From Lytechinus pictus (taxonomy: Eukaryota), in the NCBI RefSeq assembly GCF_037042905.1, contig NC_087250.1:22446001-22510000 (forward strand): DNA of 64,000 nt, given 5' to 3'. Of this stretch, positions 1 to 63,236 are shown in pieces. How positions within the stretch are numbered: the stretch's first letter is position 1; every line of letters begins with the position of its first letter. Made by a program: the position numbers and the translations under genes. The notes under the pieces were generated by a model. That model had not been told where the DNA came from. It searched no databases and saw nothing but the letters and a program-made list of their open reading frames with translations.

Positions 1-113
1 TGGCAAAGTGTGGATTGACGCCTTGCCAAAGGACGCTAGGCCATGGTGGGATTCAAACACACAATCCTCTGATTGCAAGGCGAGAGTCAGAACCCCTACA
101 CCACGGCACTTCC
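1..113 (-). mobile_element. tRNA-derived SINE, 5' head (truncated by window edge)
   Basis: Reverse strand shows A-box/B-box-like GTGGTGTAGGGG...GTTTGAATCCC; similar to the copy at about 3350-3450. Confidence 0.65.
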
Positions 114-798
114 ACATTTCCATTTAGTTTTCTCCCACGTGGTCTCGCCCTATTAGTCTATCTACTTTTTGGTCTAATTATCACTTGGTTTACATCCACT
201 ATAATTTCGGGTCTTCCGTTTTCAAAGTGTTGACGCTCTCTAGTTTGTCGTTCTGTATTTTATACTGCCGGGAATAGGCGATCTAAATTTCTGTATATGA
301 TAGGCTTTTATGATGCTGTACTTTCGTCTTATGAGAAGATATCAATTATATTAACCCTTTTGATATCTACAAACATAGAGGCCAGCTATAGTGTATTTAC
401 CATCAGTGCCGTTGACACCCTCTGCGTTCTTTTTCTTGCAATTTATACCGACAGGTATAATAATTGACCTAAATGTCTGATAGACTCATATGGTACCTTA
501 ATGAGGTGAAGATATCAATGAAATTAATCATATCTGCTAACTTACAGGCCGTCTATACTATGTTTACAATCAGTTCTGTTGACGCCCCCTATGTTCATTT
601 CTTGACATTTTATACTGACAGTTATAGGTGACCTACATGTAAATGTGTATGTGATAGACTCATATGTTACTTTCACCTTATTAAGAGAAGATATCAGTGA
701 AATTAGCCTCTTGATATCTGCAAACTTAGAGGCTGTCACAATATTTGAAAAATGTTAATGCCCTCTACCCTATTATTTTTTACATTTTATACTGACAG

Positions 799-929
799 GT
801 ATAGGTGACCTAAACGTCTATGTGATAGATTCATCTGGTACATTTACCCTTGTATGGCAGATGACAGGAGATCAAGGGGATGTGTGGCTGAAGGGAGAGG
901 CTCAAGTCCCAAGTACAGATGAATACCAG
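799..929 (+). CDS. MAM/LDLa gene exon 1 in window (MAM A)
   Basis: [13 protein letters not shown]...[23 protein letters not shown]. Confidence 0.85.
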
Positions 930-3900
930 GTGATTTACTCTAATTGCCAAGTTCACTTTCAACTTTATTATACAAGCCAGTCAAACAATCTAACGTATAC
1001 ATTTAAATAGCAAAAACTAGTAATAATGATTGTACTTGCTTATATAGCTCTTAACACTTTATCAGAAGTGTCTTATTATGCTTCAGTAATGCAGCATAAT
1101 TGCCCTGACTTTAGCAGAGCAGCTGTTAAGCGCACTGTGCTTCAAGGAATGAATTTCTATTAGGTACCCATTCACTTTACCTGGGTTGAGTGCAGCACAA
1201 TGTGAATAAATTTCTTGCTGAAGGAAACTACGCCATGGTTGGAAAATTCAAACAAACAACCTTCTGTTTCATAGTCCAGAGACATATCCACTGGGCCACA
1301 ACGCTCCACATATACTTGTAGAGTATTGAATTACAGAGAAACATAAAGATCTCATCGTTGAAAGAATGCATAAAGTAAAAAGCTGCAAACACATAAAATC
1401 TCTCTTACACAAACATTTTATACTTTTCAAACTGTTATAAACAGGTGTGAATTCAAGTTCTTGGTTGCTCCTCATGTGATAACTGAATACGAGATTTGAG
1501 TAACTTAAAACATACATATAAACAAATTACACGACATGAAAATTATAATGATAATACAAAACATTTATAGGGCGCTTGCTATGGGCATCTTTAAGCATGC
1601 TGTTATTTGTGTATGATTAATATTTGGGGGCAAAAGAAATGGGCATGCTAAAACAAATATCATTAAGTAATGAATTATGAAATAAATAATAATAATATTA
1701 AATGCTGATGTGCACAAACAATTTACTGAGCTACAACTAGAAATCGTATGATAATTAATTGTAATGCGTTATGCTAATTAATAGTATTTTTGTTACATCA
1801 TCAGATTGCATTTGAAGCTGTGTCAACTGGTGCGTTAAAGGGAGATATAGCAATTGATGACGTCGATGTAGACCCATACTCTTGTGGAACTAGTCCTTCC
1901 TCCATTCCAGTAATTTGTAAGTATAGTTTTATATATTAATAGCTAAAGCGTTTACTGAACATATTCTGTATGTTATATTTCCATCATAGCTTGTATGATT
2001 GTCTATGACTATACTTATGGTATAATTACCCATGACATCACTTTTTTTGTATTTTATTGTTTTGTATACCTTTTAATCTAAGGTAGATATGAAAGTAGAA
2101 TCACTCAAGTTTATCTAAGGTAGATATTCAGTAGAATTACTTTACTTTATCTAAGGTAGACATTAAATTAGAATTACTTAACTTTATCAGAGGAAGGTAT
2201 TTAAGTAGAATCACTTGTGTCACTAAGGTAGATATGAAAGTGGAATCACTTAAATGTATCTTAGGTAGATATGAAAGTAGAATCAATTAATTCTACCTTA
2301 GATAGATATGAAAGTAGAATCACATAAGTTTATCTTAGGTAGATATGAAAGTAGAATCATTTAAGTTTATCTTAGGTAGATATGAAAGTAGAATCACTTT
2401 AGTCTATCTTAGGTGGATATAAAAGAAGACTCACTGAGTTTATTTAGGTAGATACTACATCTTTAACATCTCTGAAAAAAGCCACTTAAAGTGGAATTAG
2501 TGCATTACAAATTTGATTGTTTTTTATTTTTATTAAACCCATAACAAGCATTAAAGCTTAGATTTTGAGAAAATATTTGTATGAAATAAATATGCAACCA
2601 AACTTTCAGCATTTTCACCTTTTGTGCGTTACTCCTCTTTAAGCAATGGACTGTACCTTTGAGCTCGACACATGCCCCTACTCACAGCTCAGCAGTGACG
2701 ATTTTGATTGGACAAGAAACCAGCAAACCACGCCCAGTATAGAAACAGGCCCCACCTTCGACCACACCACCGGGTCAGGCTGGTACATGTACATCGAAGC
2801 GTCCAACGGCATTAATGCTGGTGACCGCGCCCAACTCCTCGGCCCTGCCCAGAACCCAACGGGAGATGCGCCCAAATGTCTGGTGTTCTGGCTGCACATG
2901 TACGGTCCACATATCAATCGGTTTAATGCGTACATGCAAAGAGAGGGGCAGCAAGATGTGAAGCTCTACACTAAATATGGCTCGCAGGGAAGCAATTGGT
3001 TTAAAGCTCAGAAAGAGATTGTGTCATCAATAAACTGGAATGTAAGTAATTGCAATTGTTGTGGATTAGTTTGGCCAATTAGCTAATTTGTAACTATCAT
3101 TTATCTTTTATTTTTCGAAATACTGAGATAATGATAATAATGATAATCCGTTTGATATAGTGATTTATGCATCGCAACACATACATGTGTATAGTATTAC
3201 TCTGGTCATTGGGTCTTTGTTATTGCTTGCACATATGCAATGTATGCACCTTCTCCACTCTCAGGAATCATTCCAACAAGAATTTCCAAACTCAACAGAT
3301 ATGCATAATACGTAGACTTCAGCATTCTATTGGGTACCCATTTAACATGGGTGGCAGAATAACGGATTGCCAAAGGACACTAGGCCGTGCTTGGGATTTG
3401 ACCTCATGACCCTCTGATTCCAAGCAAGAGTCTGAACCGTTACATCACGATGCATTCACAATGAATTGAACAGTTTATGTTGCAGAAACGTAATATTCAC
3501 TAATCATAAGACTCGTATGATGAAGTGCAAATTTTTCAAACTGATGATTTTCTTTTATCATAGATCCTGTTTGAAGGCGTGGTTGGAGATAATTACTTAG
3601 GAGACATCGCTCTTGATGATGTGATATTGTATGAGGGAGCATGCCCACAAGAAGGTTTGTTTATAAAAGATTACCTGCAAAATATTTGTTTAAAATAATC
3701 TGTTAAATAATGATGGAGTGAAAGATGGAGGAGATGAAGAAGAACAAAAAGAAAAGAAAAAGAAATAGAGGAAGAAGAAACCTAACTTTTGTGTTGCAAA
3801 TCTTTATCGAATTCCATCTAAAGTTTTCTCCAAACACCCCCATATTCTGCTTGTTTATTTCATTCTGTTGCTTGGAAATATCGAAACTTGACAAGTGTGT

Positions 3901-6900
3901 ACCCCCACCCCACTGTCAGGAAAAAATTATTTCATACAACAATGCTTGAATAAAAGAGTGGCAGTATCATATTTTGACGCAGGCCAAGAAGTTCGAATGG
4001 TTACATTATTTGACTGTAATAAATTACAGGGACATCCATGCTCTTTCACTTTTTATTTCATTTGTTTTTCCTCCACACCTTTTCCTTGAACTATCATTAC
4101 CCCTGCTTACCCTACCCCCGCTCCCTAGTAGCAGTACACCTAAATACATAACATACGCTTTTGTTTGACGAATCACAAATCATTTACAACTCTGAAAGCT
4201 AAAAATATCCCCTTTTTTCATATCATCTTTTCAGTTACCTGTGACTTTGAGCTGGACTTCTGCGGCTGGACCCAGGACCAGACCGATGAGTTTGATTGGA
4301 CCAGGGATGCAAGAGGGACAGGATCTAGTAATACAGGACCAAGTTACGACCATTCGACAGGCACAGCAGAAGGTACATTTGCTTTGAATTAAATTCAATA
4401 ATATGCTGCTGCTGTCAACGTAAATGGAAATGGCCAACTCAAGGACACGGTGCTTAGCCGTCCTTACACCCTCCTGCTGCTACGTTAGGAATCAGGCCAA
4501 TAATACATTGACTTCAGTGGGGCTAATTATATATTCATGAGGTCACATCTTGGGGCCCCATAAACCTATTCCCACCATATTTGGGTTGTGGGGGTTTTTC
4601 ATCATGCTCTACAAAAAAATAATGATATCAAGAAACGTTGATATGCAAAACGTGAAAATTGATGGTGTCACACTTCGGTACTCTATATTATAGCATTTTT
4701 TATTGGATAGTATTACCCTTTTTACATCGTATCCTGTTTAATTTCATTACGCCTTTTTAGCATGTTATACTTTCTTTATTTCTGTTCAAGCTACTCTGTA
4801 TGAATTTTTGTGAATAGATAAATAATATTTTAAAAAATAAAAGATACCACTGCCAACAATAACCAACGATATTCCTAGCATTGAGAAAAATCAAAAGTTA
4901 GAGGCCAATGGGTGTCCATGTTTTCAAATGGTGACAATTCAAATTCATCATGTTATTAAAGCTTGCAATAGCAAATCGATGAGAAGTCTATTGGAAAAAG
5001 TAGGAATGGAGGGAAGTCACTGTGGGTGCAAAGAGAATGACCGGGCAAAATGCGACAACTTACGTGAGATGTCGCAATTCAAAAACAAAAAAAATCATGA
5101 TATCCACTGTTTTTATACAACCTATGGGCTGTTTAACAAACAGTAAAGTATGAATTAGAGGCGTACTTAAACGCCGATGCGCACATATGATTCAACGTAT
5201 AATCTGATTGATGGATACGCGGTAGTGCGCGTCCCGTGCGCATGATCTGACCAATGTGGTGATTTGTTCTATTCGCACATAACTGGCGTTTAAGTGCAAC
5301 TTTTAAGTCCTACTTAAATCTTTGTGAAACACCCCCCCCCCCACTCCCGATCCCCTGTCCTGTTTTCTCATTACAGGTTTCTACGCGTTTATTGAAGTTT
5401 CATCACCGAGAGTACAGGGTGACCGAGCGATCCTCATCAGTCCCACATACCAAGATACAAGTAGTGAATGCTTCAGACTCTGGTATCATCTACTGGGGAA
5501 AGCTATAGGAGAGCTGAATGTCTATATCAAGGATGAGGTGACAGGGACAACGACCGCTCCACTGTTCAGTAAATCAGGTCAGTTCTTAAAAATAACCATT
5601 ATGATAATGATGATAAGTTCATTTCATTTCGTTTATTTCCATTTCCAACATTTTCAATAATTGCGTTTTGTTCCATACATCTTGATGTATATAGAAGCAA
5701 AGAAGATTTATATGTACATTAAATCAAGATAATCATATAAGCAGGTTTGGAATGGAGGAGGCTGCTAAAAAGCAGAGCTTGTAGTGTGCAGCCTCCTACT
5801 GAAGAATAATCGAGTGTGGATTTGTATATGCTACTATATGGCAGGGATTCCAAGATTAAGATAACAGCAAAACCCCTTTACTTACTTTACATTATTCATT
5901 AATAATCATATAGTTTACGATCTTCCGTCAATTTGGTAGCTATCATTTGAATTGGTTTTGTATAAAATGTGAATATTTTGTTAACTAATTTTAGCCTGAT
6001 GAATATTTTTGAAATGTTCGTGAAGTTTGGACACCTCATTATAATTATCTGTTATTTTAAAATGAGTAAGTTGGCGCATCATCCCTGTTTTTTTTTTTTA
6101 ATAAACAGGTCCTCCTTCAGATGCCTGGCGCTTTGCTCAAATTGACATCTCCTCGCCCCATCGCTACCGGATCCTTGTTGAGGGGGTCAGAGGTAGTGGT
6201 GTACAGGGGGATATCGCTATTGACGATATTGAGGTCATCCCAGGAGCCTGTCCAAAGCAAGGTATGAAAGAAAAATCACAAGAATTTGCTGTCGAGTACA
6301 AGCTGTAAGCCACAATTTGTTTCGAGTAATAATTCACAAAGATGTAGGACTGAGTTTCCATATTCAGTCATCCATAATTAAACCATAGATTGAAGCCAAG
6401 TTGTTGTTGGTAAAGTTTTGGGCAAATCCGTCAGTTTTACTATAATTTGCCATGGTGTCACACTCTTTACCTATTTAGATCATATGTAGATGCTTGTAAG
6501 GTGAAAATGTGCATATTTATGTATTTATTGTAGTTCAATTATTTTTTTTGCATGCATGATAACTATTCCAAGGGAAAGGAAAATGTATGGAATGTTGTTT
6601 TAACAATGAGGTAGTGTCAGGGTGCTTCATAAGCACTTGCCCAATTGCCAGGGGCAAGTAAAAGTTAGAGTCGGACAAGTGTTTTGAAGTAAAGACCAAA
6701 ACTACTTTCCCCGAATTGGGCAAGTAAAATTCTCACAGTAGAATGACCAAAATTAGGGTTGATATGATATATCGGCCTTAATTTTGGTCATGGCAGGCAA
6801 GATAAAATTACTTTGGAAAAATAAATGGAATAACAAAGTAGGTCTAGATCAGTTCATGTCAAAAGGGAGAAAAAGGGCAATGGTTTATAAAACCGCAAAA

Positions 6901-9900
6901 CTTTCTTTTGAAGATGTAAAAAAAAAATTCAATGATTTTTTTCGGGCAAGTGAAATAGATTTTTGGGCAAGTATATTCCACCTGTTTTAAAATTTACTTG
7001 CCCGACCGGGCAAGTGCTTCTAAAACGTTATGTAGCACCCTGAGTGTAGTCATTCATTGTGTTTTTAGGGTGAAGCTAATGTTTCAGATTAAGGATTTTG
7101 GTTTACATGTACCGGTAGTTATATGTTGAGTTAAAGAAAATAATAAGGCAACATTTATACAACACTTATTACAATTTGTCTTAGCACTTCATACTATTAC
7201 TATCATTGAGCTGCCTTTCGAATATTTGTTTTCTAACAGGGTCATGTGACTTTGAAGATGGACTATGTGGCTGGTCTCAAGAGGTCCAGAATGATGTATT
7301 TGATTGGCTCAGGACCAGTGGGTCTACACCTAGTGGAGGAACGGGACCTAGTCAGGATCACACTACAGGATCAGCTGCAGGTGTGTATGATAAATAGTGT
7401 TGTGGGTATAACCCCATTGGTTAGAACACAGTGTGTACACAGTGTATTCACAGGGTGTTCACAGTGTGTTTACAGTGTGTTCAGTGTATTCACAGTGTGT
7501 TTACAGTGTATTCACAGGGTGTTCACAGTGTGTTTATGTTGTATTAATAGTGTGTTCACAGTGTGTTTACAGTGTATTCACAGTGTGTTCACAGTGTGTT
7601 TACATTGTATTAATAGTGTGTTCACAGTGTATTCACAGTGTCTGTATTCACAGTGTGTTCAGTGTGTTTATGCTCTGTTCATTGTATGTTCACAGTGTGT
7701 TCAAAGTGTGTTTACATTGTATTAATAGTGTGTTCACAGTGTGTTTACAGTGTATTCACAGGGTGTTCACAGTGTGTTTACATTGTATTAATAGTGTGTT
7801 CACAGTGTGTTTACAGTGTATTCACATTGTCTGTATTCACAGTGTGTTCAGTGTATTCACAGGGTGTTCACAGTGTGTTTACATTGTATTAATAGTGTGT
7901 TCACAGTGTGTTTACAGTGTATTCACATTGTCTGTATTCACAGTGTGTTCAGTGTGTTTACGCTCTGTTCATTGTATGTTCACAGTGTGTCTACAGTGTA
8001 TTAACAGTGTGTTCAAAGTGTGTTTACAGTGTATTAACAGTGTGTTCACACTGTGTTTACTGTGTATTAAAGGTGTGATCACAGTGTGTTCATGGTGTGT
8101 TCATAGTGTTTACAGTGTGTTCATTGTGAGTTCAAAGTATATTCACAATGTGTTCATATTGTGGATTACGTGAAAATATGCCTCATACTTTGAAAATGCT
8201 TAAATTCATCATTGTAGAAATAATTTTATGCAATGGATGCCTCTCCAGTGTGAATATTCAGTGTGTTCACATAGTTGACTATGTGAAAATGTGATTTAAA
8301 CTGTTACATTGCCTAAATTTAAAAATGTGGAGATAAATTAACACTGTGGAAATCTTTACAGTGTGTGTTCACATTATGTTCACAAAGTGGACTATGTAAA
8401 ACTTTGATTCACACTTTTTAAATGCTAAATTCAATTAAATTCAGCAAGGAGATAATTTCGCACTGTGACTACCTCAAATGTGTAAATATCCACAGTGTGT
8501 TCACATAGTTGACTATGTGAATATGTAATTTACATTGTTAAATTACTCAAATTTAACATTGTACAGATAATTTCACACTGTGAATACCCTACACAGTGAG
8601 TTTTCACAGTATGGAGATAATATTATACTGTGGACATCTCTACACTGTACATGTTAACAGTGTGAACAAATAGTGGACTACATGCCTGACAATCTTCAAA
8701 TTCTCAAATTTAAGAAGTTTGGATATAATTTCATAGTGTTGACACCTCGACTTTGTGCATGTGCACAGTATGTTCACATAATGTACTATGTGAAGATGTT
8801 ATTCATACCGTTGAAATGCTCAAGCTTAAAAAAAAAATTACTGTAGAGTGCTTACAGCCTTCTAATTAATAAAAAGTGCCAGATAGGCCTGTGTGATTGT
8901 TATCATTGTTTGGGGAATTTCGTGTCAATTGATTTGAAAATATATTTATTTCCAGTGGACATTAAATCCTTTTATATCTGTTATGAACAGTTTGTAATGT
9001 TATTCATATCCATTTATTGTTCTATTCTCTTGGATGATTGCGTTCATTAACTATTATGCACCAATCAATATTTTCTAGCTTCTCTTCTTCATGATAATAT
9101 AGCATTTGTATAGTGCACGTATCCACCTTGCTAGGTGCTCAAGGCGCTCCTATATTACCCCGGCTAAGCTAGTCTAACGATTCTGGTGTGCACAGCTTTT
9201 TGGGGAATTACTTCCTGCCAGTACCCATTTACCTCACCTGGGTCGAGTGCAGCACAGTGTGGATAAATTTCTTGCTGAAGGAAAACACGCCATGGCTAGG
9301 ATTCGAATCCACGACCCTCTGTTTGAAAGACGAGAGTCAGAACCACTAGACCACGATGCAGCATTCACATTATGATATTTCCTAGTTTAATGTTTTTCAA
9401 TTGGATATTACATATACTTTGAGGCATTGCATTCATTGTATTTAAAATGTATTAAACTGTGTTACTTTTGACTTGTAATAACCTATTGTAATATGTATGA
9501 AGTTCATAATTATTTTGCACCAATCGGTATATCCTTCTTTCACTTGTTTTTAAATAGGATATTACGTATACTTTGAGACCTCTCTGCCATCCATTCAGTC
9601 CAGTGACAATGCAGTGCTAAACAGTGAACATTTTGACCCCACCAATGAAGGCTGTCTTACTATGTGGTATCATATGTATGGTGCAGGTAAGCTGAATTTG
9701 CCCAGATTTTGATATATCTTTTGTGACACTATTTGATTATTGATGGCATATTTCATACAGTATTATTTATTATGATCTACATTCGGCGCATATTGTAGGC
9801 TTAAGTCTTTCATGACTAAAATTTGTTTAACTTAAGCTAATCATTGCACACTCCAAATTGGCAACACAATGAAAACAATTAAATCACTATCTAAAAATGC

Positions 9901-11196
9901 AAGTTGGCATCTATTCAGTAGATTCATTTGTTTATCATTAATTTGTATCCATACGTAAGCCGTTAAACTTGAGCTAATCATTATACACTCTAAATTGGCA
10001 ACACAATGAAAGCACCTCAATCACTTTTTAAAACACAAATTGGCAACTTTTCAATAAATTTTACTCATGCTCTATCCATATTTTACTTCAAAATAAGAAA
10101 ATTATTGTTGCCAATTTGAGGAAGAAAAGTAGATTAATTTTTAATGTATAAAAGCTGTTTGCCTCTAGGTGTCAATCAAATTTCCTGTTTCTTCCAATGC
10201 AGGTGTTGGTGAGTTGAATGTGTATTCAGTGAATAACTCAGGATCACAGGTTCAGCTATGGTCTAAAAGTGGTGATCAAGGAAATGTGTGGCTGAAAGGA
10301 CAGGTTCCTCTTTCAAGTGATACTGAATTCAGGGTAAGACTGTGTTATTAATCCATTTTCTTCACTTTGCATTGTGAATTGCAATGTAGGACCAAGATAT
10401 GTTGCATAAGAATTATGTGTTTTTGATGTTTCTTGATTCAATTTATAAAAATATTAGGCTAGGCCATTTTCGTTAGTCAGGTTGGGTGACTTACGAAAAT
10501 GGCCTAGCCAAATATTTTCAAAAACTGGGTCTGTATTTTTTCATTTCATGCTGATTTATTCATAACTTGAAATCAGAATTTCTCTTATAAATCAAGCAAA
10601 TAAATAGACCTGAAGGTCAAAGTATTCTTACTTTGTGGTCCACATACTCTCTTCATTGATTTTAGCAAGTCTATCTAGATGATGTAACAATAATAAACTT
10701 TCCTTTGTGGTTTGTTGTTTATATATTTCATATGCATTTCAATGTTTCTCTTTTGTTTTCAATTACTAAAAATATGGTAAGATTTCAGCCAATTTTAAAT
10801 TCTTAAAAGATTTTTATTGATGTTGTTGCGTTCCTTGTAGATCCAACTAGAAGCTGTCTATCTTATTGACTCAACTGGAGACATTGCCATTGATGATGTA
10901 GATGTTGAAATGGTACCGTGCTCTCAACTCACGACTGCAGCACCAATCCCCTCCATGACACCAACACCAGGTATTGTGTTTGTACACCATTCTCTTCCAC
11001 AATTTACCAGTATCTTTCATCTGTTTTCATCAAAACCATTGTAATAGGATATAGATTAAAAAATCTAGAAAATTTAGTCAAAAATTTGCCATACATTGGT
11101 TGTGCATTTATTATCATATGATCTCTACCTATAAGATAAATTTTATATCCTATTGGAATGAAAATTATAATGTTTTTAGCAAAAGGGCAAGTGATC

Positions 11197-11259
<63 letters not shown>

Positions 11260-56200: not shown

Positions 56201-59200
56201 ATTGCAATTTAGTTACAAAAAAAAGGGAAGGTGGTGAAGAAGAAGCAAAAGAAGAAGAAAAGGAAGAGAAGAAGAGGAAGAAAAAAGGATGAAAAAGAAG
56301 AAGAAGAGAAAGAAGAAAAGGGGGAGAAGAAAAGGAGGAGTGTGGTGAAGAAGAAAATAAGAGAACTCGGTGAAGGAGAAGAGAATAAAGGAAAATATAT
56401 TTTTAAAAGGGAGGTGAAGAGAAGAAAATGAAAGAGAAAAATTTGGAAGATTAGTTTTGAAGAGGAACAAGTAAAATGTTGAAAAGTTTCTAATCATATC
56501 TTTTTCAAATTTGTAGGCAAATTATTTAAAGAAGAAGGTACTGTGGTACAAACAGCCTGACTATAGGCTAGTCATATTTTAGAAGTTTTTTGAAGATGCT
56601 GGTGTGATGATCTCAGGTTGCCAGCTAGTGCATAAGGCATGATTAGATCTTTTTAATATTTTGTCACCATTCCATTTAAATCTTTCCATTTAAGAAGTTC
56701 GACTATTATGTGTCATTTTTTATATCAAGGTTTCTACATGACAGTTGGCAGTGGCAATGGACAGTTCAATGAACCAGCTAGACTTGTGAGTACAGTCCTT
56801 CCTGACACTGCACCAGCTTGTACCCTGACATTCTGGTACATTTATCAGGTAAGAGACTGTATATTAAGGCTATTCTTTAAAACACTTGCTGATATACTTT
56901 TTTCGATTTTTTGCATTTAAAAAAAATCTAAATTCTAAAAGCTAAACTTTATTTACAGACGGTTGAAAATAATGCAAATGAAAACTGTAATGATAAGTAT
57001 ATTTTAAAGCAATTACTGCAACATTAGTACCCCACCTTCAGTGTAGCAAGATATAAAGCAGATCAAAATAACTACCCCCCTCCCCAAAGGGACAGCAATG
57101 GTGAATGGTAAAACTTTAGGAGAGGCTAGTAATTATGGTTTATTGCAGAAAATTACAGCTCCAAAAATTTTCAGAATTGCATGTTTGGGATTGCTTTTGA
57201 TTTCTTGAGTTGTATATCAAACGCAATCTTTTCTGTTACTGACCCAGATTAGTTTCAGTTGGATTGCAATATAGAAATAATATGGTTTCTTTGGGAGCAT
57301 TTCATGAAACAAAATTGATTTTACTGACTTGTTAAAAGCTACTGCGAATCCTTTATTCTGATTGGATAAGAGCAAATTATGAAGTTTTTCATTTCATGAA
57401 ACACCCTCATTTTCATTTCTAAGGTGTCAACTGCTGCGAATGTCCCTCTTACTGAGTTCTACATGCAAGTTGCAAATGCTAGTGATCCAGCGGATTCTGC
57501 AGATTTATGGAGGGCTCCCCCAACATCAGTGGCAACATGGACTCAAGCTACAGTCGGACTAGGAAGACAAATATCAAGCTATCAGGTAAAAAGAGTGTAC
57601 ACCTGTCAAAATATGTGCAGGGTCATATGGCAATGCTCCCCCACCCCAACCCCAAACAAAAGAATGATTATCATAAATGAATGTATAAATTGATAAATAG
57701 ATAAATGAGTAAATAAATAAGTTTAATGAAATTCAGAATTTAAAAAGAAATTTAAAATTCAAAAGATAATTCTGTAATTTGTCTTTGGTGAAACTACAAA
57801 AATCAATGAACTTGAACACCAACAAGAAATACAGCCCCAGTCCAAAATGCTTAGCATTTATCCTTTCAGTACACACCCTGATAATTTCTTTTAACCAACC
57901 CAGAAGTTGGTTTGATGTGAACAGACCAATTGTTGATTACGAAAATTGCAATACATTTTTGCATTCGATTTTGCGTTAACCAACAGTTAACCAAGGATAG
58001 CTAAGCGATTTCTGTGGTTCAACCAACAGTTAGTAAGGGTAGATAAACACTTTTTGTGTCTTAACCAACAGTAAGGATAGCTGAACAATTTCTGAGAAGG
58101 AATGAAATCTTCAGAAGCCTTGTTGCTCAACAATTATGAGAGTTTTTTATGACAAATTTATTCATTTCATGATGGAGTTATTGTGCGTAATTTTTGTACC
58201 ATATTCAGAGTGCATTTCATCTTTTTTTGTATGATATGTACATCCAGTGGCTTGTAACACAATCATAGCAACCATCGTAAAACTTTTTTTACGATTGATT
58301 GAATTGACTACATGAAAATCAATCTTATAATCAATTGCTAGCCTTTGTTTTACAGAACCCTGGTATGGTTTACTATTGCTACTTGTACTTTCTCCTCCCA
58401 ACAGATTAAATTTGTTGTTGTCATTTCGGATGATGACGATGTCATTGCTGTCGATGACATCATGCTCACTGGCTGCAAGGTGGAATCCTATAGCCCGTGT
58501 GAGGTTCAATGCGACAACCTACTTTGTGTTCCGTTCTCAGAGAAATGTGACTACTCCGATGATTGCACAGATGGGACGGATGAAAGGACATGCGGTGAGA
58601 GTCCATTTGCTTTATTGTAAATTTTTTTGCAGCTCTGATCCATCTGCGTAATATTAAAAAAAACACAGCTAGCACGTGCTTCAAGTAATCAATGTGTACA
58701 CACTAGTGCATACATTAAGCAAACTATCAGATTATGCAGCTCTTAAGCAGAGAGCGATATGACCTTGGTAAATATACCGTCGACATTTACAATGCAATTA
58801 TATTCACCGAGGTGACATCAAAACTTGGAATATAACAAATGCGATCCTTGCAGCTATGATCATGTGATGGCATATTGATCTATCACTTATTTGAATCTAC
58901 ACAAGCATCTATTGATTCCTTGACTATCAGATTCCATAATTTCCATGTATAAAAGGTTTGTACATGGACCCTCAGGCTAAACAATAAAGAAAAAATATTT
59001 TTAAACTTTGTACAATCTCTAGTAGATATGAACCAATTCTTGCATACATGAGCAAAGCACGAAGCACCAGTGAGTGTTGGCTTGAGTCATGGATATACAC
59101 ATCCATATTAACTAACTATTTACTAAATGAATCAGTTTTCCTTTCCTCAAATTGGCAACATTCATTTTTTTAACCCTCTTACATACAGTAGTCTGAAAAA

Positions 59201-62200
59201 AAATATGGAGACGATCTAGGTCAAAATGAAGGATAATGGTAAAATATTATTCAAGAATTGCCAATTTGCACTTTTCAATAGTGATGATATATTTTTCATT
59301 GCATTGCAAATTTTGGAGTGCAATGACTAGGGTTAGTCGCATGGTTTTTATTCAGGAATGGCCCAAAAATTATTTATTTAACATAAAAGATTTCTCTTTC
59401 TGATGATGTACATCTATTAAGTGTCTTATCTGATTGTTTAAACTATATGCTTCTTAGCACAAGCCAGTGCAAGATGCAGATATTGTAATATCCTCGATGT
59501 TTTTTTTTTGTTCTCAGATTCATATCAGAGATGTGACTTTGAAGCTAATCTTTGTGACTGGAGCCAGAACAGGGAAGATGATCTTGACTGGTTGTGGATG
59601 ACGGGTAATCAAGGGGCGCAGGGTGGTGCCCCTGGTGTTGACCACACCCTAAATACTCCCTCAGGTGAGTGTTTATTGGTGATTGGTTGTGAATGAAGGG
59701 TAATTAGAGGGCGCAGGGTGGTCGCTCTCGTGTTGACGACATACTAAATACTCCATTAGGGGAGTGGTTATTAGAGATGATCTTGATTGCTTGAGGATGA
59801 AGGGTAACCAAGGGGTGCAGGATGGCACACCTGGTGTTGATTACACCCTAAATACTCCATCAGGTGAGTGTTTAATGAAGATTAGTTGTGGATGAATTGT
59901 AATCAACAGGGACGGGGTGGCAGCCAACTAGTGCCAATCTCACCCTGAATAATCATATTGGATGAGAGTGTAATGGAGGTGATCTCGATTGGTTATGGAT
60001 ACTGGGTAGTCAAGGGGCGCTGGGAGGGCGCCCCTGGTGTTCACCACACCCTAAATACTTCTTCAGGTAAGTGTTTATAGGAGACTATCTTGAAGTTTGT
60101 TGATACCGGTATTCAAGGGATGCCGATTGGTGCCCCTGGTGTTGACCACCCCCTGAATACTCCATTGGTTGAGATGCTGACACCAGTTGTTTACACATTA
60201 CTCTTGAACTTACTAACTTTCTCAACAGGTTTCTCCTTATTCTCTATGTTATTGTTTATTCTGGTTTTTCTCCCTCTTCTTCTTCTTGTTCTTTATCTTT
60301 TCCTTCTCATTCTTCTTCTTTTCCTTCTCATCTTCTATTCTTTTGCTTCTCGTATACTGTTTCTCCTTCTCTTTCTCTTCTTCTTTTCCTTTTCCTTTTT
60401 TCTTTCTCTGCTTTATCTTTTTCCCTTCTCCTCTTCCTCCTTCTATGATATGAAGTGGGACTAATATAAATTATCCTCTTTCACGATTGATCTTCTTTAC
60501 AGGACACTATCTCTACCTCTATACCTACGACACCGATGTCAACAAGAGAGCAAGACTTGATGGTCTTATTTATTCCCAGCCGAATACTGCTGGTGATTGC
60601 CAGGTAGGATGACATATTTTATTATATTTCATTACTAACTTTTGAAATATGTTCTTACCTTGAGGAAATATTTTAATGGTTTCTTTAATTTTATTCGAAA
60701 TGGTGGCACTCACACATTGAATACAATTAGAAAGAGGAAAATGTGCTTGGAATTGAGCTGTTCCTAAATGCAAACCATTAGTCATAACTGCTCTTTAAAC
60801 ACTCTTTTATTGCATTACAATTTAAAAAAAAATACTGTTTATAAATGCCTTTTTTAATAGAACACTGCCATCTTCTTAAACATTGAGTCTTGTTAAATGA
60901 TATTTATTTGATTGAATTTTGTATTGAACTACTTTTGTCAAGAAAAAGCACTCCAAAATTACAAAGGGAAGGGATGGCCTGTCATAGCGCCAAGCAATAG
61001 GCTGTGTCACATGATGAAAAGTTTTCAATGACTGACCTTTGCCTGAGTAATATAGACACATTATTTCATGAATGCTCCTGATCAAAAGAGGCTACTGAAG
61101 CATGTGAATGAGAATAAACGAAGGAATGATTCCAAAAATCGAAATATCCAACCTTTTTTAGCAACATTGTGTTATCATCATTATCATAAGGCTATCTGTG
61201 TTATCAATATCATCAATTGTTATCAATATCGATCTTTGATTATTTTTTTTCAATCTTCCACACAGATGAGGTTCTGGTACCACATGAACGGTGCTAATGT
61301 TGGTACACTGAGGGTCATGACCCTGATATCCCTCTCTGATTACCCACAATCCATCTGGTCAAAATCAGGCCCACAGGGAGATGTATGGCTGAGAGGCATC
61401 GTTGACCTTGACCCAGGAAGTAGATTCCAGGTAAGAAATTGGTGATTTGTGGCCCGTCGCAGAAAAGTTACTATTATGTTAGCTTTGCCATTCAATGGTA
61501 ACTACCACGCTGCCCAACTATGGCAAAAGGAAGCAAGTGACACATCAGTGAAATTTGAGTTTTTGTTGTTTCTGAAACACCCTTTGTATGTTGCACGTTC
61601 AGACATGCAAATTTCGGGGAAGAAATGATCGTTCTATGGAAAGATATTGTAGAAAATATGCTGTTAAATTTCATTGATGCCTATGTAATGACGAACACAT
61701 ATTGCTCATTTACAACAAATGATACTTTTGTAACTTGCATCCTTTTTGCCAAAGTATGGCAGCATGGTAATGATGATCAACAGCCAATCAGAATCAAGGA
61801 TTTCATGCAAGTTACCAATGGATTGTAAAGTTAACATAATGGCAACTTTTATGCAACGGGGCCTTGGGCCAGTATTCAATTTGATACTTAAACAAAAAAT
61901 TTGAATATTTTACTCAGTACTTTGCTCAAGTAAAATACTTAACCATCTTTGGTATCCAATTGCATCTTTTAAGTGATATATTTTGGGGGAATGGGTGAAT
62001 GTATGTTCAAGTGAGGTTTTCATTTATTCTATTTTTCCCTTTAGGTTCTACTAGAGGGTGTGGCAGGTGGTAGTGATGGTCATATGAGCCTTGATGATAT
62101 ATCATTTACACCTGGATGTGTAGTCTCACCAGACCAGACCCTACCCATTAAGGTTACTCCTTCAAGTAAGTACTGCCATTAATTTTACAACACAATGTTG

Positions 62201-63236
62201 CATTACTAGATACGCACATTTATGTTTTCCACTAATTTGTTTTTTAATGTTAAATGAAGATTTAGTTTACACAGGATGTGGTCACACCAAATGAGACCCT
62301 ACTTTTCGAATAAATATATCCTTGTATTGTACAACATTACAACGTTGTATTACTAGATATGCACATTTATGCTCTGAATGTGGAACAGTGTGAAGTTTGC
62401 ATCGGATGAGTAATCTCACCCGATCAGACCCTACACACTCCTGCCAATAAGTGTATCAATGAATTGTACAACCACACACGTTTCTGCTCTAAAAAAAATT
62501 GTGAATGTTTAACAATGATAAAATTTGAAGGATGGAATAAAAATATTATTGATTGTTATCTGTTTATTTCAAGGTGCCCCTCACTGCAACACAGGTGAAC
62601 GAGCTTGTGATGATGGATCCTGTCTTGATATTACTAAATTCTGTGACTTCAAGTTTGATTGCAACGATGGCAGTGATGAGAAAGAATGTCGTAAGTTGGC
62701 AAAGCGTAATTTTAGGTTAATATGTATATTTTGTAATATTTGTAGCTTGTTTTATATACATGAAATCTGATATTCAGTTAGCGCCATAAGTGTCACTGGA
62801 GAGGGTGTTCACTCTTTAAATCCGCACCACTATTATTAATAACAATAATATTTTTTTCTTTTGAAATTGAGTACTGTAAGCTATATTGTTCATAGCCTAA
62901 AGATAAAGAAAAAATTAACCAAAATTCACTTTTGTTTTTATTTTTTACAGCCTCAGTATGTAGATTTTAATGTGATATGTACTCATATCTATTATTTATT
63001 TTTATCACCTTAATATTTGTATTCCAGTGTTGTTCATCGTCTAAGAGTAGAAGAAAAAATCAACCCAAATTCAATTTTGTTTTGCTCTTTTACAGCTTCG
63101 GTATGTACATTTGAAAATGATATGTGCTCCTGGGAGCAATCTCTAAACGATGATTTTGATTGGCTGAAACACAATGACTCTGATTCGTTGGAATACCTTG
63201 GACCAGATACAGATCACACAATGAATAGTCCAGATG
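799..63236 (+). CDS. MALRD1: Partial multi-exon gene (62 exons in window, open at both ends): giant MAM and LDL-receptor class A domain-containing protein (MALRD1-like / apical endosomal glycoprotein-like)
   Basis: Repeated MAM motifs (CDFExxxCxW, DFDW, GPxxDHT, GxY, FWYHMYG, GDQGxxW, GDIAIDD) interspersed with LDLa modules (CxNGxCI...CD...DCxDxSDExxC). All junctions are GT-AG with compatible phases and the summed exon length of 10,902 nt is a multiple of 3. The symbol is a family-level assignment; orthology was not tested. Confidence 0.9.
1020..1310 (-). mobile_element. tRNA-derived SINE
   Basis: Shares the core GGTACCCATT..ACCTGGGT.GAGTGCAGCAC..AAATTTCTTGCTGAAGGAAA with 9090-9360 and 55747-56024; AAT-rich tail at left. 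Confidence 0.65.
1805..1916 (+). CDS. exon 2 (MAM A end)
   Basis: [35 protein letters not shown]. Confidence 0.85.
2075..2455. repeat. Minisatellite, about 38-bp unit (TATCTTAGGTAGATATGAAAGTAGAATCACTTAAGTT), about 10 copies
   Basis: Head-to-tail degenerate copies with no unique spacers. Confidence 0.85.
2644..3041 (+). CDS. exon 3 (MAM B)
   Basis: [10 protein letters not shown]...FWLHMYG...SSINWN; AG/GTAAGT. Confidence 0.9.
3125..3455 (-). mobile_element. tRNA-derived SINE (second subfamily)
   Basis: (AAT)n tail, core ATGCAATGTATGCACCTTCTCCACTC shared with 25738-25995, tRNA-like head at right. Confidence 0.65.
3564..3654 (+). CDS. exon 4 (MAM B end)
   Basis: [30 protein letters not shown]. 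Confidence 0.85.
4235..4372 (+). CDS. exon 5 (MAM C)
   Basis: [21 protein letters not shown]...DHSTGTAE. Confidence 0.85.
5124..5342. mobile_element. Degenerate MITE, same family as 43159-43368
   Basis: Right end TACTTAAATCTTTGTGAAACACCCCC identical to that of 43159-43368; left TIR decayed. Confidence 0.55.
5377..5577 (+). CDS. exon 6 (MAM C)
   Basis: [23 protein letters not shown]...[10 protein letters not shown]. Confidence 0.85.
6109..6261 (+). CDS. exon 7 (MAM C end)
   Basis: [11 protein letters not shown]...[18 protein letters not shown]. Confidence 0.85.
6618..7042. mobile_element. Non-autonomous hAT-like DNA transposon, 5-bp TSD AGTGT
   Basis: TIRs CAGGGTGCTTCATAA / TTATGTAGCACCCTG; subterminal GGGCAAGT/ACTTGCCC repeats; AGTGT at 6613-6617 and 7043-7047. 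Confidence 0.75.
7240..7380 (+). CDS. exon 8 (MAM D)
   Basis: [14 protein letters not shown]...[12 protein letters not shown]. Confidence 0.85.
7425..8830. repeat. CACAGTGTGTT-type satellite/low-complexity tract, homogeneous at left and diverged at right
   Basis: Dozens of 10-11 bp CACAGTGTGTT/TACAGTGTATT units with higher-order blocks. Confidence 0.9.
9090..9360 (-). mobile_element. tRNA-derived SINE
   Basis: Reverse strand: GTGGTCTAGTGG (A box)...GGATTCGAATCC (B box), conserved core, tail at left. Confidence 0.75.
9558..9686 (+). CDS. exon 9 (MAM D)
   Basis: GYYVYFETS...[11 protein letters not shown]. Confidence 0.85.
10203..10333 (+). CDS. exon 10 (MAM D)
   Basis: GVGELNVYS...[21 protein letters not shown]. 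Confidence 0.85.
10841..10970 (+). CDS. exon 11 (MAM D end + Pro/Thr linker)
   Basis: [27 protein letters not shown]...TPTP. Confidence 0.85.
11199..11256. repeat. (TA)n microsatellite
   Basis: Direct reading. Confidence 0.95.
11848..12000 (+). CDS. exon 12 (MAM E)
   Basis: [18 protein letters not shown]...DHTLRNIN; alternative in-frame acceptor 6 nt downstream. Confidence 0.8.
12616..12885. mobile_element. MITE, PIF/Harbinger-like, 3-bp TSD CAG
   Basis: About 35-bp TIRs GGCCGCGTCTTACAAAGAGATACGATTGATCCGATC; CAG at 12613-15 and 12886-88; decayed relative at about 41325-41570. Confidence 0.8.
12965..13215 (+). CDS. exon 13 (MAM E)
   Basis: [10 protein letters not shown]...WWYHMYG...TGDFT. 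Confidence 0.88.
13861..13951 (+). CDS. exon 14 (MAM E end)
   Basis: [30 protein letters not shown]. Confidence 0.85.
14124..14590. mobile_element. Non-autonomous TIR element flanked by ATAT, nested in an older GC-ended MITE (about 14003-14622)
   Basis: TIRs GTGACCTACCACCCTAAAACCACCAATAAGTCG / CGACTTATTGTTGGTTTTGGGGTGGCAGGTCAC; ATAT on both sides. Confidence 0.75.
15096..16069 (+). mobile_element. Helentron/DINE-1/Tsp-like non-autonomous element
   Basis: Inserted in a T-run; subterminal IR GTCTCACCTGCA (15101) / TGCAGGTGAGAC (16038); (GGC)n microsatellite; 4-5 tandem core repeats of about 160-190 bp containing GGTCAAAGGTCA. Confidence 0.75.
16673..16813 (+). CDS. exon 15 (MAM F)
   Basis: [15 protein letters not shown]...DSTYQTAQ. 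Confidence 0.85.
17253..17415. mobile_element. Short MITE (related elements about 52250-52390, 57290-57410)
   Basis: Imperfect TIR CTGGCGAGCGTTTCAT / ATTAAGCGTTCCCCAG; internal GATTGG(CCAAT) motif shared by the relatives. Confidence 0.5.
17779..18035 (+). CDS. exon 16 (MAM F)
   Basis: GHFLYVD...[10 protein letters not shown]...ALEYT. Confidence 0.85.
18773..19025 (+). CDS. exon 17 (MAM F end / MAM G start)
   Basis: [17 protein letters not shown]...[10 protein letters not shown]...DHTLGTPL. Confidence 0.88.
19416..19675 (+). CDS. exon 18 (MAM G)
   Basis: [11 protein letters not shown]...FWYHLYG...GTNYE. Confidence 0.88.
20235..20703 (+). CDS. exon 19 (MAM G end, LDLa, MAM H start)
   Basis: IIFEGQV...[10 protein letters not shown]...[18 protein letters not shown]...WVHLYGT. 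Confidence 0.9.
20733..21193. mobile_element. Non-autonomous TIR element flanked by ATAT
   Basis: GCTTTTCACA...TTTCCTTAA at left, TTAAGGAAA...TGTGAAAAGC at right; ATAT on both sides. Confidence 0.6.
22210..22545 (+). CDS. exon 20 (MAM H end, LDLa)
   Basis: DVGSLGVF...[11 protein letters not shown]...[16 protein letters not shown]. Confidence 0.9.
22948..23622 (+). CDS. exon 21 (whole MAM I + LDLa)
   Basis: [15 protein letters not shown]...FYYHMYG...[16 protein letters not shown]. Confidence 0.9.
24115..24343 (+). CDS. exon 22 (MAM J)
   Basis: [12 protein letters not shown]...[20 protein letters not shown]; phase-2 donor. Confidence 0.85.
24481..25256. mobile_element. Non-autonomous piggyBac-like element, TTAA TSD
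   Basis: TTAA|CCCTAATTCTCCCGGGG...CCCCGGAGATTTAGGG|TTAA; internal GGGGGGCCATAATG(G)CCCCCC hairpins near both ends; related fragment at about 38150-38310. Confidence 0.85.
25738..25995 (-). mobile_element. 5'-truncated SINE
   Basis: (AAT)n tail and core similar to 3125-3455. Confidence 0.65.
26235..26409 (+). CDS. exon 23 (MAM J)
   Basis: [12 protein letters not shown]...GDHGNQW...GQYY. Confidence 0.85.
27188..27290 (+). CDS. exon 24 (MAM J end)
   Basis: IRFEASPG...[16 protein letters not shown]. Confidence 0.82.
27870..28019 (+). CDS. exon 25 (MAM K)
   Basis: DVSCDFGAG...[14 protein letters not shown]...DHTTGD. Confidence 0.85.
28141..31707. mobile_element. 3.57-kb non-autonomous PIF/Harbinger-like transposon, TSD CAG
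   Basis: Perfect 27-bp TIR GGCCCGTATTCCATAAACGAGATAAGC; subterminal CTAAG/CTTAG repeats; CAG at 28138-40 and 31708-10; no transposase ORF. Confidence 0.88.
28460..29720. repeat. Internal tandem array (about 150-bp subunits / about 320-bp dimers) with GTTGCCATGGTAAC motif
   Basis: GTTGCCATGG(T/C)AAC and GATGTGCAA recur about 7 times. Confidence 0.75.
32346..32533 (+). CDS. exon 26 (MAM K)
   Basis: [20 protein letters not shown]...[10 protein letters not shown]. Confidence 0.85.
32975..33143 (+). CDS. exon 27 (MAM K end)
   Basis: [12 protein letters not shown]...[18 protein letters not shown]. Confidence 0.85.
33812..33940 (+). CDS. exon 28 (MAM L)
   Basis: [12 protein letters not shown]...[11 protein letters not shown]. 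Confidence 0.85.
34560..34822 (+). CDS. exon 29 (MAM L)
   Basis: GHYAYAS...[10 protein letters not shown]...GDQGDVW...SNYK. Confidence 0.88.
35315..35626. mobile_element. MITE, Harbinger-like, TSD TAT
   Basis: About 65-bp TIRs starting GGCCC(A/G)TATTCTGAAGTC; TAT at 35312-14 and 35627-29; decayed relative at about 47443-47746. Confidence 0.82.
36085..36319 (+). CDS. exon 30 (MAM L end / MAM M start)
   Basis: IYFEAISGG...DIAIDD...[12 protein letters not shown]...DHTLQNSY. Confidence 0.88.
36887..36973 (+). CDS. exon 31 (MAM M)
   Basis: [29 protein letters not shown]. Confidence 0.85.
37291..37460 (+). CDS. exon 32 (MAM M)
   Basis: [12 protein letters not shown]...GNQGNVW...DQFW. Confidence 0.85.
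37905..38025 (+). CDS. exon 33 (MAM M end + linker)
   Basis: IIVEGIIG...DTAIDD...PPTTIPTF. Confidence 0.85.
38453..38602 (+). CDS. exon 34 (MAM N)
   Basis: [16 protein letters not shown]...DHTTGDST. Confidence 0.85.
39237..39493 (+). CDS. exon 35 (MAM N)
   Basis: [11 protein letters not shown]...FWFQMYG...TDSYT. Confidence 0.88.
39634..39724 (+). CDS. exon 36 (MAM N end)
   Basis: [30 protein letters not shown]. Confidence 0.85.
39915..40380. repeat. Degenerate tandem repeat, about 95-100 bp unit, 5 copies
   Basis: GACTGGTCA..TGAT..ATTTCAGCCAATCATTT...CACCATTTTA...ATTGATGTGAT recurs. Confidence 0.75.
40400..40531 (+). CDS. exon 37 (MAM O)
   Basis: [12 protein letters not shown]...[12 protein letters not shown]. 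Confidence 0.85.
41110..41255 (+). CDS. exon 38 (MAM O)
   Basis: GHFMFADM...[10 protein letters not shown]...VLQ. Confidence 0.82.
42481..42597 (+). CDS. exon 39 (MAM O)
   Basis: [39 protein letters not shown]. Confidence 0.8.
42615..42965. repeat. (GAT/GGT)n degenerate microsatellite
   Basis: Direct reading. Confidence 0.85.
43159..43368. mobile_element. MITE with about 50-bp TIRs
   Basis: GGGGGTGTTTCACAAAGATTTAAGTATAACTTAGAGTCGCACTT / AAGTGCGACTCTGAGTCATACTTAAATCTTTGTGAAACACCCCC. Confidence 0.8.
43527..43761 (+). CDS. exon 40 (MAM O end / MAM P start)
   Basis: FRFQASS...VAIDDII...[12 protein letters not shown]...DHTLGTPY. Confidence 0.85.
44050..44276 (+). CDS. exon 41 (MAM P)
   Basis: [10 protein letters not shown]...[10 protein letters not shown]...WRQVQ. 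Confidence 0.85.
44737..45937. mobile_element. Putative non-autonomous DNA element with a long terminal hairpin (possibly Crypton-like)
   Basis: ATTATA...TATAAT ends; about 165-bp foldback at left (ATATATGGACTGCTTT/AAAGCAGTCCATATAT, CATGGTTGTTTC/GAAACAACCATG); CpG-rich right part. Confidence 0.5.
45956..46079 (+). CDS. exon 42 (MAM P end)
   Basis: [18 protein letters not shown]...[16 protein letters not shown]. Confidence 0.82.
46084..46178. repeat. (TTGG)n/(TCGG)n microsatellite
   Basis: Direct reading. Confidence 0.9.
46688..46804 (+). CDS. exon 43 (LDLa)
   Basis: [17 protein letters not shown]...[16 protein letters not shown]. Confidence 0.85.
47209..47349 (+). CDS. exon 44 (MAM Q)
   Basis: [14 protein letters not shown]...[12 protein letters not shown]. 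Confidence 0.85.
47932..48585 (+). mobile_element. Second Helentron/Tsp-like element
   Basis: T-run insertion; subterminal IR GTCTTGCCTGC / GCAGGCGAGAC; (GTC)n; 3-4 tandem cores with AAGGTCAA; 3' hairpin AACGC-TTG-GCGTT then CTTG|TT. Confidence 0.72.
48879..49135 (+). CDS. exon 45 (MAM Q)
   Basis: GWYMYVG...[11 protein letters not shown]...GDQGDRW...GGFN. Confidence 0.88.
49791..49875 (+). CDS. exon 46 (MAM Q end)
   Basis: [28 protein letters not shown]. Confidence 0.85.
50515..50643 (+). CDS. exon 47 (LDLa)
   Basis: [15 protein letters not shown]...[18 protein letters not shown]. Confidence 0.85.
51394..51543 (+). CDS. exon 48 (MAM R)
   Basis: [15 protein letters not shown]...[11 protein letters not shown]. 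Confidence 0.85.
52137..52243 (+). CDS. exon 49 (MAM R)
   Basis: [11 protein letters not shown]...GDKARLFSP...YCR. Confidence 0.82.
53178..53342 (+). CDS. exon 50 (MAM R)
   Basis: [13 protein letters not shown]...DLNFQ. Confidence 0.85.
53907..54034. mobile_element. 128-bp MITE, TSD CAA
   Basis: TIR GGTCCCGTAACTTAAAGGTTAGC / GCTAAGCTTTGTGTTACGGGCCC; CAA at 53904-06 and 54035-37; inverted decayed relative at about 58250-58362. Confidence 0.75.
54149..54239 (+). CDS. exon 51 (MAM R end)
   Basis: [30 protein letters not shown]. Confidence 0.85.
54645..54800 (+). CDS. exon 52 (linker + LDLa)
   Basis: [37 protein letters not shown]. Confidence 0.85.
55747..56024 (-). mobile_element. tRNA-derived SINE
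   Basis: Highly similar to 9210-9360; A/B boxes on the reverse strand; (AAT)n tail. Confidence 0.75.
56081..56182 (+). CDS. exon 53 (MAM S)
   Basis: [22 protein letters not shown]. Confidence 0.82.
56215..56470. repeat. Purine-rich low-complexity tract
   Basis: GAA/AAG-rich. Confidence 0.8.
56730..56848 (+). CDS. exon 54 (MAM S)
   Basis: GFYMTVGSG...ARLVS...[10 protein letters not shown]. Confidence 0.82.
57424..57585 (+). CDS. exon 55 (MAM S)
   Basis: VSTAANVP...[16 protein letters not shown]. Confidence 0.8.
58405..58594 (+). CDS. exon 56 (MAM S end + LDLa)
   Basis: IKFVVV...[11 protein letters not shown]...[16 protein letters not shown]. Confidence 0.85.
59518..59664 (+). CDS. exon 57 (MAM T)
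   Basis: [15 protein letters not shown]...[11 protein letters not shown]. Confidence 0.85.
60230..60445. repeat. Pyrimidine-rich low-complexity tract
   Basis: CTT/TTC-rich. Confidence 0.8.
60503..60603 (+). CDS. exon 58 (MAM T)
   Basis: [10 protein letters not shown]...RARLDG...GDCQ. Confidence 0.82.
61266..61430 (+). CDS. exon 59 (MAM T)
   Basis: [13 protein letters not shown]...GPQGDVW...SRFQ. Confidence 0.85.
61450..61863. mobile_element. MITE, Harbinger-like, TSD TTG
   Basis: TIR GGCCCGTCGCAGAAAAGTTACTATTATGTTA / TAACATAATGGCAACTTTTATGCAACGGGGCC; TTG at 61447-49 and 61864-66. Confidence 0.72.
62045..62165 (+). CDS. exon 60 (MAM T end)
   Basis: [25 protein letters not shown]. Confidence 0.85.
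62574..62690 (+). CDS. exon 61 (LDLa)
   Basis: [17 protein letters not shown]...[16 protein letters not shown]. Confidence 0.85.
63096..63236 (+). CDS. exon 62 (MAM U start)
   Basis: [14 protein letters not shown]...[12 protein letters not shown]. Confidence 0.85.

Follow-up and report, generated by a model that had tools for sequence, protein, structure and literature searches.

Copied exon edges in the introns of an echinoderm MALRD1-like gene: mirage-type tandem arrays and one likely repair-mediated insertion

The introns of a long echinoderm gene contain copies of the edges of 13 of its 62 exons (seven acceptor and six donor events), a set that consists of tandem arrays of the type called mirages, reportedly first described in a paper on amphioxus Adh3, and of one likely repair-mediated insertion. 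The set is real and dense, and it belongs to an already known kind. The copies are probably genomic segments spanning an exon–intron junction that arose as short local duplications of the ordinary kind and have since decayed neutrally within introns. The window analysed (64,000 nt of Lytechinus pictus, contig NC_087250.1, positions 22,446,001 to 22,510,000) holds 62 coding exons of a MALRD1-like gene at 799–63236 (+), with exon coordinates set by hand from the sequence and with both gene ends lying beyond the window limits. When joined, the exons give 10902 nt, i.e., 3633 codons without a single stop. All splice sites have their AG or GT, and the introns have a median length of 645 nt (range 140–4326 nt). 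Pfam MAM was matched by all four exons tested, three of which also matched the LDL-receptor class A domain (Ldl_recept_a), and the best protein matches of exon 21 (55–58% identity, among candidates of at most 2000 aa) are MAM/LDL-receptor class A domain-containing proteins of a brittle star, a crinoid and sea urchins. Judging from these matches, the predicted product is a large protein with repeated MAM and LDL-receptor class A domains. Exons 19–21 (20235–23622) are long and devoid of introns where most other MAM repeats have one, which suggests clustered intron loss.

The window also harbours several other repeats: a 37-nt minisatellite of 10 units (2073–2454), an 11-nt minisatellite decaying into longer-period repeats toward its 3' end (7427–8830), CTAG-rich low-complexity sequence in long introns with inverted repeats at its borders (28064–31900 and 44744–45840) and a very abundant repeat at 55760–56030, which has a sharp end at 56015 and further copies at 1–130, 1096–1311 and 9225–9372. 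The latter has a strong and strand-biased presence in RNA run X15 (depth ~3000 vs. 440).

The original prediction had reported copied junctions at about 12 of the 62 exons, with acceptor copies upstream of exons 1, 15, 18, 49, 51 and 62 and donor copies downstream of exons 30, 47, 50, 52, 57 and 60. Self-BLAST and alignments recovered all 12 of them, each on the side claimed, and exon 9 was added as the 13th. The exon numbering of that prediction coincides with that of our model. The copies, one weak candidate and the purely intronic arrays used as comparators are the following:

219–677 (+): exon 1 acceptor, three tandem copies of ~174 nt with the intron end and the first 46–50 exonic nt; AG kept in 2/3
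9357–9437 (+): exon 9 acceptor, one copy, AG lost; additional to the earlier list
9022–9089: exon 9, further partial copy of the intron end
14652–16431 (+): exon 15 acceptor, decayed array with units of ~155–170 nt; AG kept in one of the four scored
19197–19337 (+): exon 18 acceptor, copy including 66 exonic nt, offset 148; AG kept
36406–36701 (+): exon 30 donor, three copies of ~96 nt with only ~10 exonic nt; GT kept in 2/3
48632–48706 (+): exon 45 acceptor, weak candidate (score 42), excluded from the enrichment count
50979–51370 (+): exon 47 donor, last 25 exonic nt and ~330 nt of intron; GT kept
51777–51974 (+): exon 49 acceptor, end of intron 48 and 8 exonic nt; AG kept
53387–53560 (+): exon 50 donor, two copies of 97–98 nt of the exon end with its donor; GT kept in both
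54042–54124 (+): exon 51 acceptor, decayed copy with the exon start, offset 82; AG kept
55448–55532 (+): exon 52 donor, 85 nt identical to 54748–54832, with 53 exonic nt, the donor and 32 intronic nt
59680–60173 (+): exon 57 donor, five copies of 95–105 nt with the last 80–89 exonic nt; GT kept in 2/5
62255–62470 (+): exon 60 donor, two copies of the exon end; GT lost in both
62875–62984 (+): exon 62 acceptor, copy with 34 exonic nt, offset 144; AG kept
39898–40373 (+; units of 97–100 nt), 9825–10060, 13470–13847, 25261–25588 and 57969–58120: five purely intronic arrays

The exon 15 array is interrupted at ~15100–16058 by a repeat element, and must thus be older than that insertion. This element has inverted ends and an internal tandem array (period ~163–192 nt), and the repeat elements at 28485–29718 (period 158 nt) and 48002–48499 (127–154 nt) also contain internal tandem arrays, all periods being approximate. 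A weak 43-nt match (54550–54592, score 46) to the intron end before exon 51 (54108–54150) is sited downstream, in the next intron. Purely intronic tandem duplications, whose occurrence had been noted earlier, are confirmed by the five arrays listed; the one at 13470–13847 stops 14 nt short of the exon 14 acceptor, and the one at 39898–40373 stops 27 nt short of the exon 37 acceptor.

Twelve of the 13 events are head-to-tail direct arrays of two to six units of ~80–380 nt that combine exon and intron sequence, and in these 12 arrays the working junction is the exon-proximal end. Short duplications of this size do build intron sequence out of exon ends, as had been proposed, and account for 3.7 kb of 53 kb. 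An empirical p ≤ 0.02 (null distribution from 200 distant windows) was reached by 18 of the 124 junction probes, including those of all 13 events; of the other five, one belongs to exon 45, one reflects a microsatellite at exon 42 and three are weak matches. With a 60-nt probe, scores of at least 40 were obtained in 10% of local windows vs. 0.14% of distant control windows. Weak probe matches at exons 27, 39, 42 and 55 were discarded as chance or microsatellite, as was a match to the exon 9 donor at 6467, whose score (43) is about chance level. All exonic probes with an intronic copy came from the exon ends listed above. Copies of spliced (cDNA-derived) junctions were found for none of the 61 junctions, which points to a genomic or unspliced template. 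There was no convincing case of an inverted copy, the single match adjoining a TA run, and a search with positions 1–12000 of the window found no look-alike windows in other genomes. Divergence had been described as ranging from heavy decay to complete identity: one copy is indeed 100% identical (exon 52, not tandem), and the rest are ~70–86% like the real junction. Likewise, the process had been called recurrent and ongoing; recurrence holds, given 13 separate events, while “ongoing” is weak, since the tandem arrays are of old date and unhomogenised, and the one copy in its favour (exon 52) was probably made by another route.

Might the copies be assembly artefacts, i.e., uncollapsed haplotypes? 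One of them (exon 52) is 100% identical to its source, none of the contigs listed bridges that insert and no run contains half of the sampled words. However, the other 12 of the 13 are 14–30% diverged and lie in ordered arrays, and the window contains no N. DNA contigs of a second organism (organism B), ~90–96% like the window, cover 51041 (exon 47 copy) and 60150 (exon 57 copies), and one of them runs from within an exon 50 copy (53512) into unique intron (53805); among the pieces listed, the presence of copies in this organism is readable for exons 47, 50 and 57. Two DNA runs have contigs on the copies of exons 47 and 57. The contigs of organism B argue against an assembly artefact and for the age of the copies. 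We regard the artefact explanation as highly improbable.

Under the explanation we favour, tandem duplication (by slippage, unequal exchange or break repair) would strike all positions. Events within an exon or over a whole exon would be purged, and an event over one exon edge would be tolerated, as it leaves one intact junction. The spliceosome would then take the site nearest the exon, leaving acceptor copies upstream and donor copies downstream, a side rule that tandem geometry would impose, given the need to retain one intact exon. Moreover, junction copies would remain identifiable for a longer time than intronic pairs, since selection presumably holds one of the two partners and near-exon deletions are presumably purged, and much of the apparent junction bias may come from that. 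For the exon 52 copy, a different origin is likely, in which DNA from nearby served as the template for an insertion at a break in a repeat.

A bias of the duplications towards exon–intron junctions had been suggested earlier, and in this window junction overlap does exceed the background expectation. Our census of local duplications with units of at least 80 nt, which excludes microsatellites and the 11- and 37-nt minisatellites, comprises 13 junction events (exon 52 in, exon 45 out), five intronic arrays and three arrays inside repeat elements, the last being counted in one scenario only (n = 21, not in n = 18); both census and repeat mask were drawn by hand, in one window picked for this trait. 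With random placement on a collapsed layout, exon-internal and whole-exon events being excluded, junction overlap is 13/18 vs. 6.6 expected without the repeats (P = 0.0019) and 13/21 vs. 5.7 expected with them (P = 0.0008). When 20 exonic nt are required, 11 junction events remain vs. 5.9 or 5.1 expected (P = 0.005–0.011). In a forward simulation, junction copies were visible 1.36 times as long, and purging large exon-touching deletions gave a visible lifetime of 1.29–1.94 times, under rates that are assumed and uncalibrated, especially near 2. For survival odds of 1.3, 1.5 and 2, the P values become 0.010, 0.021 and 0.074 with repeats excluded, and 0.005, 0.012 and 0.055 with repeats included. 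The excess, about two-fold over random placement, thus stands here, but longer copy survival explains it partly or mostly. Our preferred conclusion, which we hold to be likely, is that the junction excess is real in the window and is due to survival and to the selection of the window.

The alternative is that duplications arise preferentially at exon–intron junctions, the excess being mutational and going beyond the survival effect, owing for example to breaks at a step in composition or nucleosome occupancy, or to transcription-linked breaks. Besides the overlap counts given above, including those requiring 20 exonic nt, the units of exons 30, 47 and 49 speak for it, as they are mostly intronic and would be visible even without their exon part. 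Yet the counts come from a single trait-selected window with a hand-drawn census and mask, the survival bias amounts to 1.3–1.9, the exonic share of the units spreads from 0.04 to 0.89 without clustering, and duplicated sequence per base has no peak at junctions, a measure that counts the copies themselves and is not a test of origin. Such a mutational preference is therefore doubtful in our eyes. Just as tentative is the broader claim that, in this echinoderm lineage, short duplications are made preferentially at junctions (about twice the random rate), with junction copies at around a fifth of the exons of long genes and with exon edges as a main source of new intron sequence. If that were true, the decay series would be a naturally occurring test of how the spliceosome passes over perfect rival sites, and a bias holding genome-wide among young events would link splicing architecture to mutation.

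Within the arrays, the copies of exon 57 are 70–85% like the real exon vs. 64–76% like each other, and those of exon 30 are 74–82% like the real junction vs. 69–73% like each other; the arrays of exons 57, 50 and 30 display no homogenisation. Several observations nevertheless count against local duplication followed by neutral decay: the junction excess is not fully removed at survival odds of 1.3–2; the pooled identity of exon parts (81%) is barely above that of intron parts (79%), a gap smaller than a fully frozen exon predicts; two of the five intronic arrays stop within 30 nt of an acceptor; and the exon 1 array has no star pattern.

The copies had also been proposed to create decoy or alternative splice sites and to feed variation of MAM loops. 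Many of them do keep their AG or GT (16/27, the exon 45 candidate included), as had been said, but this is what local identity alone would predict (17.1 expected), and splicing at any of the 27 copied sites produces a frame shift or a stop (27/27). Mismatches relative to the real exon amount to 16.4, 16.9 and 24.0% at codon positions 1, 2 and 3, respectively. The third-position excess (p = 0.002, with non-independent copies) fits synonymous change in the real exon, while the high mismatch at positions 1 and 2 argues against coding constraint on the copies. GC-to-AT substitutions reach 21.5% vs. 9.7% for AT-to-GC.

Regarding actual use, two contigs of run X1 (presumed RNA) follow the model cDNA at an unchanged offset over exons 48–50 and 55–59, so the exon 49 acceptor and the exon 57 donor in those contigs are the real sites. 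This check of transcript junctions, which covers one run and the main form over these exons, as contigs drop rare forms, agrees with the use of real sites; in the raw RNA run X15, depth on exons is below 1, too low to show rare splice forms. Selection might still have kept the copies as decoy or alternative sites, for control by unproductive splicing or for protein variation: the exon 57 copied donors with GT score 12.7 and 13.3 vs. 12.7 for the real one, the exon 30 copied donor scores 10.3 vs. 7.0, and the bin of the exon 49 copy (51702–52135) has a small, unexplained X1 depth of 0.73. However, the introns abound in high-scoring sites anyway (24 resembling donors and 45 resembling acceptors exceed the median score of the real sites), AG and GT are retained at the neutral rate, no copy yields an open in-frame extension (0/27), and X1 depth is zero in two bins (50834–51267 and 53438–53871) and equals the amount expected from the exon alone in three more (59514–59947, 62118–62551 and 62552–62985). 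Hence, we consider selected decoys very unlikely, and neither the decoy or alternative sites, given neutral retention and X1 joins at real sites, nor the MAM-loop variation is supported. By every test applied, the copies look neutral, and they probably represent innocuous side products of local DNA duplication.

Nor do we find support for the idea that the copies are raw material for intron gain or sliding (see PMC3488318 for general background on the latter). According to PMC3087553, the Rogers model of intron gain by tandem duplication was proposed for mirages, and the present copies might be remnants of intron gain or sliding of this type. Its signature (intron start resembling the next exon and intron end resembling the previous exon) is present in none of the 61 introns. 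Furthermore, the shadowed introns 8, 17, 30, 44, 48 and 57 have one column and phase common to 15 MAM repeats, the position of intron 50 is common to 14 MAM repeats, and introns 14, 52 and 61 lie at shared domain starts; intron 60 stands alone in a linker column, and the aligned windows did not reach intron 47. Homologues align without gaps through the junction in 8 of the 9 comparisons shown, the exception being one protein with an extra module. Altogether, the shared positions suggest that the introns predate the copies, and remnants of intron gain or sliding are improbable in the extreme.

The exon 52 copy differs from the 12 arrays. Identity between 54748–54832 and 55448–55532 extends over exactly 85 nt with unrelated flanks, and the copy sits 700 nt downstream of its source, inside a multi-copy repeat, without poly(A). 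In reads or contigs of all four runs, the flanks are joined without the insert (55445–55450 to 55533); among the joints listed, the joint 55450–55533 is found in 66 reads of X15, four contigs of X10 at depth 219 and six of X9 at depth 262. DNA contig depth at the flanks is ~100–300 vs. 25–60 for single-copy contigs. Direct joining and high depth together identify the flanks as a multi-copy repeat, other copies of which lack the insert. Several of these other copies have at the joint 5–12 letters that are absent from the copy with the insert. Among the contigs listed, none bridges the insert; contig 9 of X10 ends 18 nt before it with 56 unmatched letters, which is compatible with absence.

Pace et al. 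(2009; PMC2671141) describe repair-mediated duplications in vertebrates as the capture of proximal DNA and recognise them by an insert of at least 50 nt interrupting a repeat, with a donor within 5 kb. The inserts have a mean length of 162 nt, and in four cases out of 824 the donor is partial exon/intron. The exon 52 copy has these features (an insert of at least 50 nt in a dispersed repeat, with a donor 50 nt–5 kb away), and its 85 nt, its donor 700 nt away, its lack of poly(A) and the repeat copies without insert resemble the cases in PMC2671141, from which it differs in its echinoderm host and as only one of the 13 events here. Given this structure, the likely origin of the copy is a break within the repeat that received an insertion templated on nearby DNA.

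What the window adds is a densely populated instance of a repeat type that has a name but has received little study. It also allows a first, rough comparison of the junction excess with a null model that takes survival into account, and it contributes one clear-cut case of likely templated insertion. On the practical side, gene predictors and read mappers can be misled by such junction copies. Our literature search, which was largely confined to main texts outside subscription journals, returned mirages with amphioxus, no relevant echinoderm or sea-urchin report and no test of junction enrichment. In human duplicated genes, variable internal tandem repeats at exon–intron boundaries can create introns (PMC2812944). 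Those repeats and the Rogers model share with our set short internal duplications involving splice junctions, but they change splicing or create introns, whereas here there is neither a new intron nor an open extension, nor any sign of use in the transcript contigs examined. In amphioxus (lancelet), mirages are reported for Adh3, the globins BflGb6 and BflGb9, troponin C and PGBD5, and are described as non-interfering with splicing (PMC3087553 and PMC3902484). The present set resembles them in its tandem units duplicated head-to-tail across the boundary (12 of the 13 events, not exon 52), at either exon end (seven acceptor and six donor events), in unit length (80–180 nt vs. 150–160 nt in the amphioxus globins), in the retention of AG or GT by many but not all units (16/27) and in the persistence of normal splicing (main form, run X1, exons 48–50 and 55–59). 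In contrast to the amphioxus cases in these sources, it comprises 12 arrays of two to six units in one gene of an echinoderm, and its arrays are old and unhomogenised, with identities of 64–86% vs. 81–100% under concerted evolution in BflGb6.
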